In this document: piece by piece, positions 1,401-62,914 of the stretch
Layout: the number at the start of each line of letters is the position of its first letter
How positions within the stretch are numbered: the first letter of the stretch is position 1
Assembly: GCA_020059915.1 (NCBI GenBank)
Contig: JAGVBB010000002.1
Span: 62,129 to 126,128 of the forward strand
Source: Minisyncoccota bacterium
GTDB taxonomy: Bacteria; Patescibacteriota; Minisyncoccia; UBA6257; GWB1-50-10
Length of the DNA stretch: 64,000 bases
Direction: 5' to 3'
The notes under the pieces: model-generated
What the model saw: only the letters and a program-made list of their open reading frames with translations
Databases searched by the model: none
Told to the model about the DNA's origin: nothing
Translations under genes and position numbers: made by a program

Positions 1401-1436
1401 AAACCCCGCCAGTTCATGAACTGGCGGGGTTTTTAT
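1401..1436. terminator. bidirectional intrinsic terminator between convergent trpS and ileS
   Basis: ccccgccagttcatgaactggcgggg hairpin flanked by an A-run and a T-run. Confidence 0.7.
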
Positions 1437-4400
1437 TACTTCTTTTTCCTTACTGCTATCCAAATGGGGACTCCATCAATTTTTGTTTCAATCTCTACAT
1501 CAAAATGATTGCATTTACCCCAGACCAACTCTCTTGCATTCACGTCCTTCATACATTGATTTCTTTTCGATTCAATTATGCGTTGCAATTCATCCCCCAC
1601 CTCAATATGAATCACCACCTCGTCTTTTGGAGAAAGTTTTGCATCCTGGCGTAGGTCTTGAATGGTGCGTTGTAATTCACGAAGATATCCTTCTTCTTTA
1701 AGTTCCTGAGTGACATGAGTATCAAGAACAACCTCATCTTCCATGCTGGCATTAAATAAAACATCTTTGATATTTACCTCGTCCATAAGTATAGAGAGTA
1801 ACTCTGAATTTCCTTCCAAAAGCTTTGATTTCACAGTAATTGAGGCGAGTGGCTGTCTTACCTTAATTCCCGCCTCTGCGCGCTTTGCAAGGGCAATTGA
1901 CGCAATCCTGCGCACCTCTACCATGCCATCAACAAGTCCCTTATCACTTACATGGACAACTTTCGGCCATGCCTCAATATGGACCGATTCAAGCATTGAG
2001 GGAAACGATTTATATATTGCCTCTGAGAAAAATGGTGCAAACGGCGCCGTCAGCTTAGCGAGTGAAATCAGCATAGTGCCCAAAACATATGAAACAGCAT
2101 GGTAGTCATCTTTTGATTCTGGTTTTTGTAATCTCCTTCGAGAGCGTCTGATATACCACCTAGAAAGATCGTCCGCAAATGATTCAATAACGCGGGTGGC
2201 CTCCCCAACCTCATATGCATCCATATATGTTGTTGAGTCAATAATAACTTGATTAAGACGCTCTATAATCCATTTATCTAAAATATTATTTATTTTCGGC
2301 GCACTTTTCTTTTGAAGAACTTCCTTGTTTGCATATAGGTCAAAAAAAACAAATGAATTATATACGAGAGAGAAGAACTGTCGTGATACTTTCTGTAAAT
2401 CAAGTTCATCAAATTTCTTTGGTTCCCCAGGCGGATTTACTGTATAGAAGTACCACCTGATAACATCAGAACCATATTTTTGCATTACATCCCAAGGACT
2501 TACCACATTTCCTTTTGACTTTGACATTTTCTGTCCATTTTTATCAAGTACTAACCCCAATGAAATAACATTCTTAAATGGCGCCTCCTTCCCCAAAAGC
2601 GTAGAAACAGCCAACAGCGTGTAAAACCATCCCCTTGTCTGGTCGATGCCCTCAGAAATATAGTCCGCAGGAAATGGTAGTGTTTTTTTGTTTCCCTCAA
2701 ATGGATAGTGATATTGTGCAAAAGGCATCGCGCCGGAATCAAACCAAACATCGGCAACTTCAGGAATTCGTTTCATGGTATGCCCACAGGAATCACAAGA
2801 AAATTCAAATGAATCAATATATGGTCGATGGAGATCTAATGTTCCATTAATATCACGAGGGATCATTCTGTATTTTGTGATTTTCATCTTCCCCATGTTA
2901 ATAAACTCGCCATCCTCCTTATCGTGTTTCTCGGCCATTGCTTCCTCGTCACTCCATCCATTCATCACCCCATCAAGCGCCCAAAGCACATCTTCATGGC
3001 TTACTATAGCAATGGTTTTCCCAGAATATTTTTCATCTATTTCTTTTATTGCTGTATACACCCTCTTCCTCACATCAGAAATACTTTCTCCATTTGGTGT
3101 TTGTTTGGTAAATCGTTCTCTAAAGGAACCATAATAATTTGTGTACGATAACAAAGGGGAACCATTAAAATCACCAAAATCAATCTCCCGTAATCGCTCA
3201 TCGAAAATAATAGGCGCACCAGTATGTTCTTTTATAATTGCAGATGTTTCCTTGGTGCGAACCATATCGGAAGAAAAAATAAGATCAATTTTTTCTTTTT
3301 TTATTTTTTTACCAAGTTGCTCTATTTGTTTTTTCCCCTTCTCAGTAAGATGATACTTTGTCTTTTCCGGCCATGACGAAAGTGTGTTCGCTAAATTACT
3401 TTCCGATTCGCCATGACGAATAAGTATATACTTGTTATTTTTTGAAGGAACTTTCTTTTCTAATTCCTCAACACTACCAATAACGATTTTTTCTTTACAA
3501 TCACTACACTCCCATATAGGAAGTGGGGTCCCCCAATATCGCTCACGAGAAATTGCCCAATCTTTAACCTCTTTTATCCATTCCCCAAATCTCCCTGTTT
3601 GTAGATGATCTGGAATCCAATGTATGGTGTTATTTTCTTTTTTAAGGACATCTCTCAATGAACTCATTTCTATAAACCAAGAGTGCCTTCCATAATATAA
3701 AAGTGGAGTATTACAGCGCCAACAAAACGGATATTCATGTTTATATTGTTCCGTTCTTAAGAGAAGGTTTTTTTCCTCAAGTTTCTGTATTATTGCAGTT
3801 TCGGTTGTTTTTGTTTTTGCGTACATTCCAGCGAAATATGGAACATCATCAGAAAAAACTCCGGTCTCTTTTACTGTGTGTACTTCTGGAAGTCCTAATG
3901 ACCTTCCTAGTTGATAGTCATCTTCTCCGTACATCACCGCAGTATGCACAACACCAGTTCCATCTTCAGTGGTAACAAATCCTGCTGGATATACTTTGTA
4001 TGTAAGTGATTTTACAGAACCAGAAACAAACGCGGGAATTTCAAACAATGGTTCATAGGAAATAGTAACAAGATCCTTTCCAGTAACAGTTTTTAAGACA
4101 GTGTATTCTGTTCCATCAAGCACCGACAATCGTGATTCCGCAAGAATATAAATCTCTTTTTTCTTTGTATCTCCCACATCAACAATTACATATGGTATGT
4201 GCTCACCAACAGCAAGCGCAATGTTACCAGGGAGCGTCCACGGCGTGGTTGTCCAAGATAGAATAAATGTTTTTGTGTCTGCAACAAAATCTCCAATTTT
4301 TTCTCCCTTTTTTACTTTAAATTTTATATATACAGAAGTATCTTCAACTTCCTTATATCCCTGAGCAAGCTCATGAGAAGAGAGGGCGGTGCCACAACGA

Positions 4401-4945
4401 GTACACCACGGAACGATCTTGTGTCCCTTATAAAGAAGTTTCTTTTTGTGTATCTCTTTAAAAATCCACCATAGGGACTCCATATACTTATTTTCATAGG
4501 TAACATATGGGTCATCCATATCAAGCCAATAACCCATCCGCTCAGTAAGTTTTTCCCACTCATCTTTATATTTCCATACCGACTCCTTACACTTAGCATT
4601 AAATTCCATAACTCCGTACTCCTCAATTTCTTTTTTCGATTTAATTCCAAGTTGTTTTTCTACTTCTAATTCAACAGGGAGCCCATGTGTATCCCATCCT
4701 CCTTTTCTAGGAACTGAATATCCACGCATTGTCTTATACCGCAAAACAACATCCTTAAAAGAACGTGCAAGAACATGGTGAATTCCTGGTCTTCCATTTG
4801 CAGTTGGTGGACCCTCATAAAATATGAATTCTTTTTTTGTTCCTTTCTTTTTTAGCGTTTTTTCGAAAATGTGCTGATGTTTCCAAAACTCAAGTACTTT
4901 TTCTTCTATCTCTGGTAATGAGAATTGCTCTCCTTGTTTTAACAT
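1436..4945 (-). CDS. ileS: isoleucyl-tRNA synthetase (archaeal/eukaryotic-type) with an inserted histidine-phosphatase (PGM-like) domain
   Basis: PPTANGRPGIHH (HIGH), GWDTHGLP, KMSKSKGN, Zn-finger region ...DVWFDSG; aa ~505-700 carry RHGESESN...SSDMVRTKET...IVSHEDV, the histidine phosphatase superfamily signature. Confidence 0.85.
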   Translation of the reverse strand: MLKQGEQFSLPEIEEKVLEFWKHQHIFEKTLKKKGTKKEFIFYEGPPTANGRPGIHHVLARSFKDVVLRYKTMRGYSVPRKGGWDTHGLPVELEVEKQLGIKSKKEIEEYGVMEFNAKCKESVWKYKDEWEKLTERMGYWLDMDDPYVTYENKYMESLWWIFKEIHKKKLLYKGHKIVPWCTRCGTALSSHELAQGYKEVEDTSVYIKFKVKKGEKIGDFVADTKTFILSWTTTPWTLPGNIALAVGEHIPYVIVDVGDTKKKEIYILAESRLSVLDGTEYTVLKTVTGKDLVTISYEPLFEIPAFVSGSVKSLTYKVYPAGFVTTEDGTGVVHTAVMYGEDDYQLGRSLGLPEVHTVKETGVFSDDVPYFAGMYAKTKTTETAIIQKLEEKNLLLRTEQYKHEYPFCWRCNTPLLYYGRHSWFIEMSSLRDVLKKENNTIHWIPDHLQTGRFGEWIKEVKDWAISRERYWGTPLPIWECSDCKEKIVIGSVEELEKKVPSKNNKYILIRHGESESNLANTLSSWPEKTKYHLTEKGKKQIEQLGKKIKKEKIDLIFSSDMVRTKETSAIIKEHTGAPIIFDERLREIDFGDFNGSPLLSYTNYYGSFRERFTKQTPNGESISDVRKRVYTAIKEIDEKYSGKTIAIVSHEDVLWALDGVMNGWSDEEAMAEKHDKEDGEFINMGKMKITKYRMIPRDINGTLDLHRPYIDSFEFSCDSCGHTMKRIPEVADVWFDSGAMPFAQYHYPFEGNKKTLPFPADYISEGIDQTRGWFYTLLAVSTLLGKEAPFKNVISLGLVLDKNGQKMSKSKGNVVSPWDVMQKYGSDVIRWYFYTVNPPGEPKKFDELDLQKVSRQFFSLVYNSFVFFDLYANKEVLQKKSAPKINNILDKWIIERLNQVIIDSTTYMDAYEVGEATRVIESFADDLSRWYIRRSRRRLQKPESKDDYHAVSYVLGTMLISLAKLTAPFAPFFSEAIYKSFPSMLESVHIEAWPKVVHVSDKGLVDGMVEVRRIASIALAKRAEAGIKVRQPLASITVKSKLLEGNSELLSILMDEVNIKDVLFNASMEDEVVLDTHVTQELKEEGYLRELQRTIQDLRQDAKLSPKDEVVIHIEVGDELQRIIESKRNQCMKDVNARELVWGKCNHFDVEIETKIDGVPIWIAVRKKK

Positions 4946-5980: not shown

Positions 5981-7555
5981 CTACATTTTTTCTGGTGTGC
6001 TACAACCAAGTATACGAAGTGTATTTCCCAAAACATGCTGTGATGCTTCAACAAGCGCTCTTCGCGCTCTCATTGTTTTTTCTTCAACGCCATCAACATG
6101 CTCTTTTTCATAAAAGTTATGGAATGCACGAGATAGCTCCCCCGCATACTGTGTTATTCTATGGACAGAAAATGTGGCACCCACCTCTTCCAAGATGTCC
6201 GGAAACTCAGAAAGCTTTCTCATGAGGAGAGTGTCCTCTGGTGTGGCAAGAGGTGCATAATCGGAACACGCACCACATTCTGTTTTTTGTAAAATACTTG
6301 ATGCACGAACAAATGCATATTGAAGATAAAACACTGGATTCTTGTTTGAATGTTCGCGAGCGAGATCAATATCAAAATCCATGTGACTATCGGGGGAGAT
6401 CATAAGGAAAAAGAATCGAGCGACATCAACACCAACCTCATCAATGAGTTCGCTAAATGTGACAAATGCCCCTTTTCTTTTTGACATTTTCATCTCCTCC
6501 CCCCCTTTTAGAAGACGCACCGCCTGTGTAATAATCACGCGCGAATCTTCAAGTCCTAATATCTTTGCTACCGCCTGAATACGAGCAACATACCCATAGT
6601 GATCAGGACCAAGAATGAGCACCTTGCCATAAAATCCTCGCTCTTTTGTTTCAAGATAATGCCCCGCATCTGCAAGTAAATATGTTGGCGTCTTCTTACT
6701 TGTTATGAGTACGCGATCCTTATCGTCATCAAATTCTGTTGTCTTAAACCAAGTAGCTCCATCTGCTTCATACACAACATTTTTTGTTTTTAGAACATCA
6801 AGCACTTTCTCCACATACTTTTTATCATGTATATCTTTTTGCTCTGAAGTATATCGATCAAAATGAATTTTTGCCTTCTTCTCAAGCGCTTCTTGGATAA
6901 GAGAAAGAAAATAATCAGCAGCAGCGCGCCCAACATGTTCTGGGTCATCCTTATGTTTTTCTATAAACTCCTTATGTTCCTGCGCCCATTCAGCGACATA
7001 TTCACCCTTATAAAAAGTTTCTTCAAATGGAATGTGTCCACAATTCGCTACAAGCGATTTCCCAAGTGTGACAACCTGATTTCCTGTATCATTCACATAA
7101 TATTCCCGTTCCACAGCAAATCCTTGCGAATCCAGTACATTTGAAAGTGCATCCCCCAAAAATCCACCCCTCCCATTTGCTAATGTTAGTGGCCCTGTTG
7201 GATTTGCAGAAACATATTCAATCTGAATTTTTTTATTTTTCTTTCCTATTTTTTTTCCATACGTTTCTTTTTCCAAAAGGATTTTATCTAGTTCCTTGTA
7301 ATATTCTATATCCTGAATCCAAACATTTATGAATCCTGGAGCTTTTAGTTCAACCCGAGAAAATAATGGATTCGTAGATATTTTTTTAATAATGTCCTCA
7401 GCAATAGTAATAGGACTGGTTCCTCTCGTTTTCGCGAGCTTAAAAGCAACATTGGTGCTGTAATGCCCAAATGCTTCTTGGTCAGGAATAGTAACTTCAA
7501 TAGTAACTTCTTCTGGAATAAGGGGTCTGAGTGCCCCCACCACTTTCTCTTTCAT
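5981..7555 (-). CDS. argS: arginyl-tRNA synthetase
   Basis: SANPTGPLTLANGRGG motif, class I core, C-terminal anticodon-binding domain ending in Met as is typical for ArgRS. Confidence 0.9.
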   Translation of the reverse strand: MKEKVVGALRPLIPEEVTIEVTIPDQEAFGHYSTNVAFKLAKTRGTSPITIAEDIIKKISTNPLFSRVELKAPGFINVWIQDIEYYKELDKILLEKETYGKKIGKKNKKIQIEYVSANPTGPLTLANGRGGFLGDALSNVLDSQGFAVEREYYVNDTGNQVVTLGKSLVANCGHIPFEETFYKGEYVAEWAQEHKEFIEKHKDDPEHVGRAAADYFLSLIQEALEKKAKIHFDRYTSEQKDIHDKKYVEKVLDVLKTKNVVYEADGATWFKTTEFDDDKDRVLITSKKTPTYLLADAGHYLETKERGFYGKVLILGPDHYGYVARIQAVAKILGLEDSRVIITQAVRLLKGGEEMKMSKRKGAFVTFSELIDEVGVDVARFFFLMISPDSHMDFDIDLAREHSNKNPVFYLQYAFVRASSILQKTECGACSDYAPLATPEDTLLMRKLSEFPDILEEVGATFSVHRITQYAGELSRAFHNFYEKEHVDGVEEKTMRARRALVEASQHVLGNTLRILGCSTPEKM

Positions 7556-7664: not shown

Positions 7665-8006
7665 TGGGGATGTTGGGCTTCGACAGAATACCAACCAATA
7701 TATGTGCAGGCGGAGCTTGTTACCTCCTAAATCTGACAACCAAATAATAACTGACAACCAAAGAGTTGCAGTCCCTGCATTTGCTTTCGCAGCATAACAG
7801 GGCACTCACCTAATTTATTGGTGGGCATCAGCACCTAATGTCTCATAGGGATCTGCTGGTGTTATATATGAGGCGCGCGCATGTTCGTTTTGAATCTTTC
7901 AAATATGTTGCGCTAATAAAAGATTCACCATTGTGTTTTTTACACTAAGCTTGTAGATCATATATAGGAAATATTTTGGACACCGGTTCAACTCCGGTCA
8001 TCTCCA
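7665..8006 (+). ncRNA. ssrA: tmRNA (SsrA)
   Basis: 5' GGGGAUGUUGGGCUUCGACAG and 3' GGACACCGGUUCAACUCCGGUCAUCUCCA form a tRNA-like acceptor and T-arm; internal tag ORF ...VAVPAFAFAA then UAA; TATAAT at 7641; the smpB partner is the next gene. Confidence 0.8.
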
Positions 8007-8102
8007 CAAAAACAAAGAGCGTCTGCACGACCCCAGTAGGTCATTTTGCTAAATGATATGTTTTTGTAGGATGCCGTATATAATTACGGCGCCACAAATA
8101 AA

Positions 8103-17222: not shown

Positions 17223-17223
17223 G

Positions 17224-17295
17224 TGCCCTTGGGTGGAATCGAACCACCACCACCTCCTTCGGAGGGAGATATTGTATCCATTCAACTACAAGGGC
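17224..17295 (-). tRNA. tRNA-Arg (anticodon CCG)
   Basis: Manual cloverleaf from the reverse complement: acceptor GCCCUUG/CAAGGGC, D-arm GUUG-AAUGGAUA-CAAU, anticodon stem UCUCC/GGAGG with loop CU-CCG-AA, T-arm GGUGG-UUCGAUU-CCACC, discriminator A; CCA not encoded. Confidence 0.75.
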
Positions 17296-62036: not shown

Positions 62037-62914
62037 CAGAGCGAGTAGTTGGAGAATATCTTGATTATTTAGAGATTGAAAAAAATCGATCTCCAAAAAC
62101 ACGGGAAAACTATGGGCGATATCTTTTTCGATTTTTAAAAGATCAACAAATAAAAAAGATATTGGATATTACTGATACATCAGTGCGAAGTTTTCGTGTC
62201 CACTTATCGAGAGAAAATACTAAAAAAGTTACTCAAAGCTATTATGTAATTGCAATCAGGAATTTTTTAAAATATTGCATAAAACGAGGAATGAAAGTGC
62301 TTTCCCCAGAAACGATAGAGCTTCCAAAAATAGCACGCAGGGATATTGAGGTATTGGACTATAGTGAGTTAGAACGATTATTGAAGGCGCCAGAAGGAAA
62401 CTCCTTGCGCGCATTGAGAGATAGGGCAATTCTCGAGATGTTGTTTTCAACGGGATTGCGCGTTTCAGAGCTTTGTTCTTTGAATAGATATATTGATATT
62501 AACCGCGGAGAATTTTCTGTTAGAGGAAAAGGAGAAAAGTTGCGTGTAGTGTTTATCTCTGATTCTGCAAAAAAAAATTTAAAAGAATATCTTGATAAGC
62601 GTCCCGATGCAGAAGAAGCACTATTTATTTCTCTCTCAAAATCGGGAAATGTAACAGGGCGCATTATTCCTCGTGGGGTTCAACGATTAGTTGATTTTTA
62701 TGCACGAAAAGCAGGTATATCAAAAAAAGTACATCCACATCAATTACGGCATTCTTTTGCCACAGATTTACTTATTAATGGAGCAGATCTTCGATCGGTG
62801 CAGGAAATGTTGGGTCATGCAAATATTGCCACTACACAGGTATATACTCATCTTACCAATAAAGAACTTCATGAAGTTCATGAGGCATTTCATGGAAGAC
62901 GGAGAAAAAAATAA
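62037..62914 (+). CDS. tyrosine recombinase XerC/XerD family
   Basis: C-terminal catalytic motifs RHSFAT...LGH...TTQVYTHL (R-H-R-Y); start set at the internal Met (MNEAERVVGEYLDYLE...). Confidence 0.8.

Follow-up and report, generated by a model that had tools for sequence, protein, structure and literature searches.

Aminoacyl-tRNA synthetases (aaRSs) rank with the most conserved of all known enzymes, and the architectures that they adopt in bacteria are generally regarded as close to fully catalogued. Eukaryotic aaRSs append non-catalytic domains such as the WHEP, GST-like, EMAPII, and UNE modules, and the bacterial enzyme described here follows the same theme of gaining domains. This enzyme, essential for translation, is the isoleucyl-tRNA synthetase (IleRS) encoded by ileS in a 64,000-nucleotide stretch of DNA (hereafter the window; positions 62,129 to 126,128 of contig JAGVBB010000002.1, assembly GCA_020059915.1) from a Minisyncoccota bacterium, an ultra-small member of the Parcubacteria. 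Within the core of this synthetase lies a complete histidine phosphatase (HP) domain, and thus what its sequence indicates to be a second intact active site. Unlike the additions to eukaryotic aaRSs, the acquired part is a whole enzyme whose predicted active site is intact, is located internally, occurs in bacteria with minimal genomes, and recurs at several positions.

On the synthetase side, the closest described proteins are the IleRS2 enzymes with solved structures from Priestia megaterium (8c8u and 8c8w) and T. thermophilus (1ile). The window protein shares their architecture and motifs and aligns with them over its whole length apart from the insert. It also shares the GXHH form of the class I signature motif, whose G/AXHH variant gives IleRS2 mupirocin hyper-resistance (PMC10485003). 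However, where solved IleRS2 enzymes have a four-residue linker between the cysteine pairs of a zinc knuckle, the window protein has a phosphatase of about 200 residues. The nearest kin of this guest domain are PhoE (1h2e), PspA (4ij5), and CobC (6e4b), which are broad-specificity or metabolite phosphatases of branch 1 of the HP superfamily. The window domain differs from these three in that it reaches no equivalog cutoff, is nested in another enzyme, and has a family-specific N-x-Y start and an H-[EG]-D/x-P-x-W motif that includes the second catalytic histidine and the residues after it.

A third point of comparison is the NCBIfam family NF040702 (ileS_w_GNAT). Its members are likewise IleRSs from the candidate phyla radiation (CPR) that accommodate a further enzymatic domain within a loop of their catalytic half, and many of them also carry Pfam His_Phos_1. 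The window protein stands apart from this family: it scores 317.7 against a cutoff of 1999, Pfam finds no acetyltransferase in it, its lineage is only about 36% identical, and its HP occupies site 1 rather than site 2 or 3 (sites defined below). As the existence of NF040702 attests, the accessory domains of CPR IleRSs have not escaped curators, and automated Pfam annotation already lists His_Phos_1 (PF00300) on the proteins considered here. The feature is invisible in annotation names because these proteins are called only ‘isoleucine--tRNA ligase’ or ‘class I tRNA ligase family protein’. Our literature searches on IleRS or other aaRSs with histidine phosphatases, and on the CPR groups concerned, found no paper on a phosphatase in or with IleRS, and a 2026 preprint that annotates 96,219 IleRS architectures does not mention one. 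In short, the host is an ordinary GXHH IleRS2 and the guest is an ordinary branch-1 phosphatase; what is unusual is their combination, the internal position, the recurrence, and the existence of an operonic split form.

The ileS gene occupies positions 1436..4945 on the minus strand of the window as one unbroken open reading frame of 1169 amino acids. Its identity is clear from the NCBIfam ileS equivalog model TIGR00392, which the whole protein matches with 913.9 bits against a cutoff of 621.4, and from a search of the PDB in which the best matches are IleRSs (E=1e-242). Pfam places tRNA-synt_1 on either side of His_Phos_1, followed by Anticodon_1 and DUF5915. NCBI and JGI records hold an identical protein on three contigs (P0001, ‘isoleucine--tRNA ligase [Candidatus Parcubacteria bacterium]’), and a JGI contig (L001) matches the window with no mismatches over the 9515 bp compared. 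These identical proteins from independent sources, the mismatch-free contig, and the hundreds of homologues described below exclude an assembly or gene-call artefact, and bear out the assertion of an earlier note on this DNA that the reading frame is continuous.

Alignment to 8c8w, the closest solved IleRS2, defines the boundaries of the insertion. Residues 9-498 of the window protein correspond to residues 9-477 of the solved chain, and residues 699-1086 correspond to 482-869. Between these segments, about 200 residues (amino acids 499-698, window 2852..3451, minus strand, as are all ileS features given here) replace the linker formed by residues 478-481 of 8c8w and constitute a complete histidine phosphatase with short linkers. 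The insertion falls within the second zinc knuckle of the catalytic domain, between the first cysteine pair, C480-S-D-C483 (3497..3508), and the DLHRPYID segment with the second pair, C717-D-S-C720 (2786..2797), that follows it. Among close relatives C480, C717, and C720 are invariant and C483 is at least 90% conserved. We take the zinc-knuckle hairpin to be CP3, by analogy with the nomenclature of connective peptides (CP core, CP1, CP2, and CP3) used for ValRS and IleRS. The phosphatase would loop out from the tip of this hairpin, the base of which the four conserved cysteines would clamp.

The earlier note had recognized this insertion from the letters alone, placing it at 2846-3433, which corresponds to residues 505-700, and estimating about 195 residues in place of a short linker, close to the values obtained here. 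The peptides that it quoted are all found in the 1169-residue reading frame: YILIRHGESESN at residues 506-517, SSDMVRTKETSAI at 558-570, ESISDVRKRV at 620-629, and IVSHEDVLWAL at 647-657 within the insert, and a 10-residue string at 471-480, DLHRPYID at 704-711, and DVWFDSG at 732-738 in the flanks. One detail requires correction. The insert was described as lying after KMSKS, whereas this motif is found intact downstream at residues 806-810 (window 2516-2530), such that the insertion precedes KMSKS and resides in the zinc-knuckle hairpin.

Several features show that the guest is a whole phosphatase rather than a fragment. PF00300, which the earlier note had proposed as the family to search for, matches residues 507-667 (2945..3427) at E=4.5e-38, scoring 131.3 bits where the gathering threshold is 21.7, and the match covers profile positions 2-164 of 194. 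Free-standing homologues of about 190 residues align with the insert from end to end, beginning with N-x-Y-[FI]-[IL]-x-RHG and finishing with a C-terminal beta-strand that reads YIKVGELRKI in the free proteins and FINMGKMKITKY at residues 680-691 of the window protein. Because these free-standing proteins align along their entire length, the insert represents a whole phosphatase protein. Structure models are confident, with predicted local distance difference test (pLDDT) scores of 86 for the whole protein and 89 for the HP domain alone, and the inserted domain has the alpha/beta fold of the family. Thus, profile matches, the 8c8w alignment, residue conservation, structure models, and the fold search agree that a complete, in-frame histidine phosphatase domain sits inside the body of this IleRS, as first proposed.

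All three catalytic elements that the earlier note had identified (the histidine of RHG, the arginine that binds substrate, and a second histidine) are present, and each stands out when 419 related domains are compared (218 embedded, 177 free-standing, and 24 other). In the RHG motif R510-H511-G512 (3410..3418), where H511 is the predicted phospho-acceptor nucleophile, the arginine and histidine occupy 100% of non-gap positions. R563 (3257..3259), the predicted second phosphate-binding arginine, is conserved in 418 of the 419 domains, and E587 (3185..3187), the predicted general acid/base, is E or D in all but one. E587 lies in LREIDFG, which we take to be the counterpart of LNERHYG in cofactor-dependent phosphoglycerate mutases (dPGMs). 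H650 (2996..2998), the predicted second catalytic histidine, lies in IVSHED and is present in 218/218 embedded and 172/177 free-standing domains. H511 would attack a phosphomonoester to form a phospho-histidine, with R510, R563, and H650 holding the phosphate and E587 serving as the acid. With conservation of these five positions near 100% across the 419 domains, an inactive structural spacer is excluded, and the inserted domain is, by sequence and predicted fold, catalytically competent.

The domain is also maintained as a unit. Insert length is 200-210 residues in all 43 relatives with 54-78% identity to the window protein. Among these relatives the HP core has a mean pairwise identity of 46%, which is comparable to the 49% of the C-terminal domains; the values for the anticodon-binding domain (54%), the editing domain (57%), and the Rossmann parts (68-72%) are higher. 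Conservation of this kind indicates that purifying selection has retained the insert across a large Parcubacteria/Paceibacteria clade. Recent horizontal acquisition was considered and rejected, given that the GC content of the insert (0.33-0.39) is inside the range of the gene and the window.

The host, for its part, looks fully functional as judged from its residues, and is a type 2 IleRS of the GXHH variant. This assessment follows from the retention of the editing motifs, KMSKS, and both zinc sites. The editing motifs WTTTPWT (W231-T234) and GTGVVH..DD (G329-H334, D342/D343) are invariant or at least 90% conserved, and the zinc ligands C181, C184, C408, and C411 are invariant in relatives, such that two Cys4 zinc sites are kept. 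The N-terminal part (residues 1-498, 3452..4945) comprises the first Rossmann half, the CP core with the first zinc site, the editing domain, and CP2; its class I signature GIHH at residues 54-57 (4775..4786) has G, H, and H in 42/42 relatives. The C-terminal part (residues 699-1169, 1436..2851) holds DVWFDSG, DQTRGWF, KMSKS, the stem-contact fold, and the anticodon-binding and type-2 C-terminal domains, with Pfam assigning Anticodon_1 to residues 890-1034 and DUF5915 to 1034-1167. No second ileS is seen within the window.

The earlier note had assigned the guest to the dPGM branch of the superfamily. The placement in branch 1 stands but the link to the mutase does not, since no dPGM equivalog cutoff is reached: the window protein scores 91.1 against 225 for the archaeal model NF038349, 56.7 against 316 for NF002339, and 46.2 against 320 for NF002217. 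Moreover, most solved dPGMs align with the domain across only about its first 100 residues. In a fold search the highest scores go to PspA (22.4), GpgP (21.5), PhoE (20.7), a riboflavin-pathway phosphatase (20.1), CobC (20.0), and FBPase-2 (19.3), each with about 180 residues aligned, and the cap-less protein phosphatase SixA scores 16.5 with 134 residues aligned. Equivalog models for two of these also fall short, with 95.1 against 162.9 for CobC (TIGR03162) and 80.3 against 350 for PspA (NF045917), and the SixA model TIGR00249 gives no reportable match to the window protein. The domain therefore resembles PhoE, PspA, and CobC within branch 1 and is not a dPGM proper. Phages encode related histidine phosphatases too, as the domain, compared in its window form and in the free-standing form from locus L008, matches a phage family of unknown function in PHROGs (phrog_12933, E=1e-26).

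The same genome encodes a cofactor-independent phosphoglycerate mutase (iPGM) of 517 residues with Metalloenzyme and iPGM_N domains (L001 14078-15631, 4.6 kb to the left of the window start), whose gene neighbors are secG and the genes for RNase Y and RNase J. The idea that the nested domain supplies a missing glycolytic mutase was rejected on the basis of this iPGM and the failing dPGM models.

Comparison with related IleRSs reveals that the insertion is not unique to this genome. PF00300 is present in all 120 of the closest IleRS clusters (clusters at 90% identity, 53-100% identical to the window protein), whose source names are Parcubacteria, Paceibacterota, Jorgensenbacteria, Minisyncoccia, and Patescibacteria. 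When the insert alone serves as query, an exhaustive HMMER search yields 2956 representatives at E<=1e-10, and among the best 150 of these every multidomain match is an IleRS, with two exceptions (an ArgRS-HP and a Sua5/YciO/YrdC-HP protein). A pattern-based genome scan recovered seven insert-bearing genomes, a number that does not measure prevalence. Outside these groups, no HP was found in or beside ileS at any of 72 other ileS loci from Bacilli, Clostridia, and others, including three Patescibacteria with short flanks. The insertion is evidently old and fixed in a large CPR clade, and other forms of the IleRS-HP association recur elsewhere in the CPR.

Two apparent variations proved to be illusory. 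Matches of 850-980 residues with HP at residues ~180-300 suggested another synthetase as host, but these are N-terminally truncated IleRS fragments. Likewise, split IleRSs that seem to start at the phosphatase (P0182 and similar) result from truncation at contig ends; the gene begins 45 nt from the end of its contig.

In one of the other forms, the two proteins are separate. At 6/6 loci of Nealsonbacteria/Pacebacteria type (L008, L082-L086), a free HP gene is located directly upstream of an insert-less ileS on the same strand. These HPs are very basic, comprise about 190 residues, and are 35-42% identical to the insert, whereas the adjacent ileS products have 931-964 residues. The gap between HP and ileS ranges from -4 to +57 nt, and the gene order is smpB, argS, HP, ileS, recO. 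The window keeps the smpB/argS/ileS neighborhood of these loci, with argS (encoding an ArgRS of 524 residues; 5981..7555, minus strand) as the upstream synteny partner of ileS, as judged by its reading frame, Pfam annotation, and conserved synteny. At one of the loci, a Nealsonbacteria-type genome, an RVT_1 reverse transcriptase and a bAvd-like accessory gene lie between argS and the free HP (L085 3597-4959), leaving the HP-ileS pair intact; this cassette resembles a diversity-generating retroelement.

Other observations concern the surroundings of argS in the window. A tmRNA gene (7666-8009, plus strand; Rfam RF00023, 115.7 bits), whose tag peptide is DNQRVAVPAFAFAA, adjoins argS, and smpB is found further along contig L001. 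The sole tRNA gene in the window is that for tRNA-Arg(CCG), at 17223-17295.

A third form is found in a second IleRS lineage, with eukaryote-like motifs and an HYGH signature, from Gracilibacteria, Peregrinibacteria, and Peribacteria, where HP is present in 107/120 clusters. Here the phosphatase occupies four sites. Site 1 is that of the window; site 1b follows the DLH..VD segment; site 2 falls between AQxHYPF and FPADFIAEGxDQTRGWF; and site 3 lies beyond KMSKS, where the anticodon-binding domain is joined on. Each of these IleRSs carries one to three HP copies. When each domain is matched to its nearest relative, that relative is at the same site in 146/156 cases for window-type site 1, 40/51 for site 1, 26/27 for site 1b, 21/23 for site 2, and 59/61 for site 3, and for free-standing domains it is within the same group in 166/177. 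Identity is only 26-47% between copies within one protein but 40-100% between copies that share a site in different proteins. We conclude that the copies are positional orthologues of long standing, derived from several independent insertions, and on the basis of the same identities we reject recent intragenic duplication as the source of the multi-copy enzymes. Altogether three IleRS lineages are involved, which are 27-38% identical to one another and all pass TIGR00392.

Two further ideas about these hosts were discarded. An archaeal origin of the eukaryote-like enzymes is unsupported, as their sources are Gracilibacteria, Peregrinibacteria, and Peribacteria and one of the loci (L087) carries bacterial markers. 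A link between HP and the GXHH hyper-resistance motif was also rejected, because the HP-bearing enzymes of Gracilibacteria type have canonical HYGH.

Some members of the subfamily show additional arrangements. Free proteins with two HP domains in tandem exist (P0175/P0398, 404 residues; P0237, 413 residues), and because NCBI names the source of one of them Candidatus Woesearchaeota (DPANN), the subfamily may extend to ultra-small archaea. Another protein of 1161 residues (P0144; L091/L092 366-3851) begins with half of a class I synthetase (the N-terminal one), continues with four HP domains, and lacks an anticodon-binding domain. Its gene is present on two short contigs of low coverage and may be a true truncated paralogue or a frameshifted gene.

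The phosphatase is not the only guest. Gracilibacteria and Peregrinibacteria IleRSs of 1370-1860 residues nest other whole domains at the same loops, including GNAT, P-loop kinases resembling AAA_33, AAA_18, or Zeta toxin, Ser_hydrolase, and DUF559 (P0399, P0400, P0410, P0411, P0449, P0451, P0459, P0460, P0476, and P0482). Some IleRSs of this type have a HAD phosphatase in place of HP, and some have DUF559 or a Y1 (IS200-like) transposase-like domain inside the CP1/editing region. The CPR IleRS thus appears to be a hot spot of domain accretion. Its loops can be read in two ways, either as a platform for enzymes that service the substrates of the synthetase or as simply tolerant of insertions.

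Taken together, these arrangements represent a recurrent and ancient partnership between phosphatase and IleRS in the CPR that takes three forms: a translationally coupled upstream gene, a domain nested once, and domains nested one to three times. To our knowledge, no known synthetase function requires a phosphatase. Because the pairing recurs, as an operon and at four sites in three diverged lineages, in episymbionts under strong pressure to shed genes, the phosphatase presumably has a role of consequence for IleRS or its tRNA. We judge the chances to be slightly better than even that the complete phosphatase nested in this working IleRS, as part of the wider CPR partnership, acts together with IleRS on a phosphomonoester carried by something the synthetase binds. 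In keeping with this, we infer that the phosphatase works in physical association with IleRS.

What might this substrate be? Our preference, held tentatively and at well below even odds, is a tRNA end that bears a phosphate, such as a 2′- or 3′-phosphate on the acceptor end that would block charging. The more specific proposal that both the nested and the operon-coupled phosphatases are RNA-directed enzymes, which remove a blocking 2′-, 3′-, cyclic, or pyrophosphate left by nucleases or toxins from the tRNA acceptor end, is somewhat less probable again. According to this proposal, the stand-alone HP would bind RNA through its own strongly basic active-site face, whereas the nested HP would rely on IleRS to present the tRNA.

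The charge of the proteins is one clue. The free HPs have a median pI of 10.0 and a net charge of about +20 to +21, or +11 per 100 residues, which is on a par with SmpB (+11) and IF3 (+8) from the same loci and far above ArgRS, IleRS, and NUDIX (+1 to +1.5). The nested copies are near neutral, and the copy in the window has -1.2 per 100 residues. With the pocket side assigned from what is generally known about this fold rather than from coordinates, the flap, Glu-loop, and cap together carry +5.8 in free HPs versus -1.7 and -5.5 in the two nested groups, and these segments around the pocket account for about 7.5 of the roughly 12 extra charges. Such a pattern fits a polyanionic ligand such as RNA, although it is not proof of one.

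A second clue is the company that HP keeps. The non-IleRS fusion partners seen are both enzymes of tRNA pathways, namely ArgRS and Sua5/YciO/YrdC, with one cluster each. In the former (P0129; L088 5001-7070), HP forms the C-terminus of ArgRS at the ancestral locus, in the gene order smpB, argS::HP, recO, with no ileS beside it. In the latter (P0159; L089 977-2140), HP is fused to a Sua5/YciO/YrdC domain of TsaC type, which belongs to the tRNA t6A pathway. The presence of both kinase and phosphatase on some IleRSs resembles polynucleotide kinase-phosphatase. The likeness to that enzyme, and to 6-phosphofructo-2-kinase/fructose-2,6-bisphosphatase, is a functional analogy only, as the window protein has no kinase.

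A number of observations weigh against an RNA substrate or against a dedicated role with IleRS. The nearest structural relatives of the domain are all small-molecule enzymes, and the domain keeps the cap that is typical of them. No enzyme of the HP superfamily is known to act on RNA ends, and a search of the literature for one found none. Why tRNA(Ile) alone would need such service has no explanation. The tie to IleRS is not absolute, because the HP at L088 stays fused to ArgRS without an adjacent ileS, and the ArgRS and Sua5 fusions are single clusters. Finally, the loops may simply tolerate insertions, because the same loops accept GNAT, Ser_hydrolase, DUF559, and a transposase-like domain.

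If the ligand is instead as small as those of the structural relatives, then the domain could be a local phosphatase that hydrolyzes pyrophosphate (thereby pulling activation forward), AMP or another nucleoside monophosphate, pAp, or an alarmone-type nucleotide at the synthetase. We regard this explanation as unlikely, though as a serious contender. All aaRSs release pyrophosphate and AMP, which gives no reason for a tie to IleRS in particular, and a diffusible substrate would explain neither nesting at specific loops nor up to three copies per IleRS. The charge of the free 190-residue HP exceeds what a small anion would need, and no equivalog model reaches its cutoff.

The tolerance of the loops invites a different explanation, in which HP is a housekeeping phosphatase with an unrelated metabolic job, such as the hydrolysis of phosphoserine or of a broad range of substrates. 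As an operon neighbor of ileS it would have been captured repeatedly into permissive loops, and co-expression and genome streamlining would account for its upkeep. We give this a marginally smaller chance than a local small-molecule activity. The main argument against such hitch-hiking is twofold: about 270 full-length proteins include no simple N-terminal HP-IleRS fusion, even though a gap of just -4 to +57 nt separates the genes, and the captures are all internal and near the catalytic core. Hitch-hiking would also have to carry this one subfamily into IleRS on at least 4-5 independent and old occasions, in lineages as diverged as those above, to leave up to three HP copies intact in one protein, and to make IleRS nearly every multidomain partner among the best 150 representatives.

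The mixture of guests at these loops could also point to target-attached detoxification, in which the phosphatase would join the GNAT, kinase, and hydrolase domains in inactivating a natural inhibitor of IleRS such as a phosphorylated mimic of the aminoacyl-adenylate. These accessory domains belong to classes typical of antibiotic-modifying enzymes, and detoxification of antibiotics of the aminoacyl-nucleotide type is an established activity of GNAT enzymes (MccE/RimL). The IleRS clade of the window, moreover, carries the GXHH hyper-resistance motif, which implies a history of inhibitor pressure. However, this motif is uncorrelated with HP, as noted above for the Gracilibacteria-type enzymes, and histidine phosphatases act on monoesters rather than on the phosphodiester or phosphoramidate linkage of adenylate mimics. 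We know of no IleRS inhibitor that bears a phosphomonoester, and defense-system models (PADLOC) give no meaningful match. A role in detoxification consequently seems improbable.

Slightly more doubtful still is a protein phosphatase that removes phosphate from histidine, serine, or threonine residues of IleRS or a partner as a regulatory switch, even though it could be paired with the P-loop kinases inserted in relatives. The domain keeps a cap that such phosphatases lack, and aligns over far fewer residues with SixA (134) than with small-molecule enzymes (about 180); the SixA model again gives no reportable match. Furthermore, these clades carry HP almost without exception but the kinases only sporadically.

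Least credible by far is that the locus hides a dPGM, an inert spacer, or an assembly artefact: the RHGESxxN motif does resemble the N-terminus of dPGMs, and the domain scores 91 bits with the archaeal dPGM model, but the widely missed cutoffs, the partial matches to solved dPGMs, the separate iPGM, the conserved catalytic residues, and the identical proteins on other contigs speak against all three.

Regardless of which substrate is involved, its identification could reveal a new step in tRNA maintenance, in the regulation of synthetases, or in defense against inhibitors. It could also explain why CPR IleRSs serve as a platform for extra enzymes such as GNATs, kinases, and HAD phosphatases. 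Should the phosphatase prove to be RNA-directed, then the repair and quality control of tRNA ends would be coupled directly to aminoacylation, and the domain would constitute a new accessory catalytic activity of an aaRS. It would also be the first RNA-end phosphatase of the HP superfamily, conserved across the CPR, and the kinase and acetyltransferase modules would extend the IleRSs of some lineages into multi-enzyme platforms for servicing tRNA.

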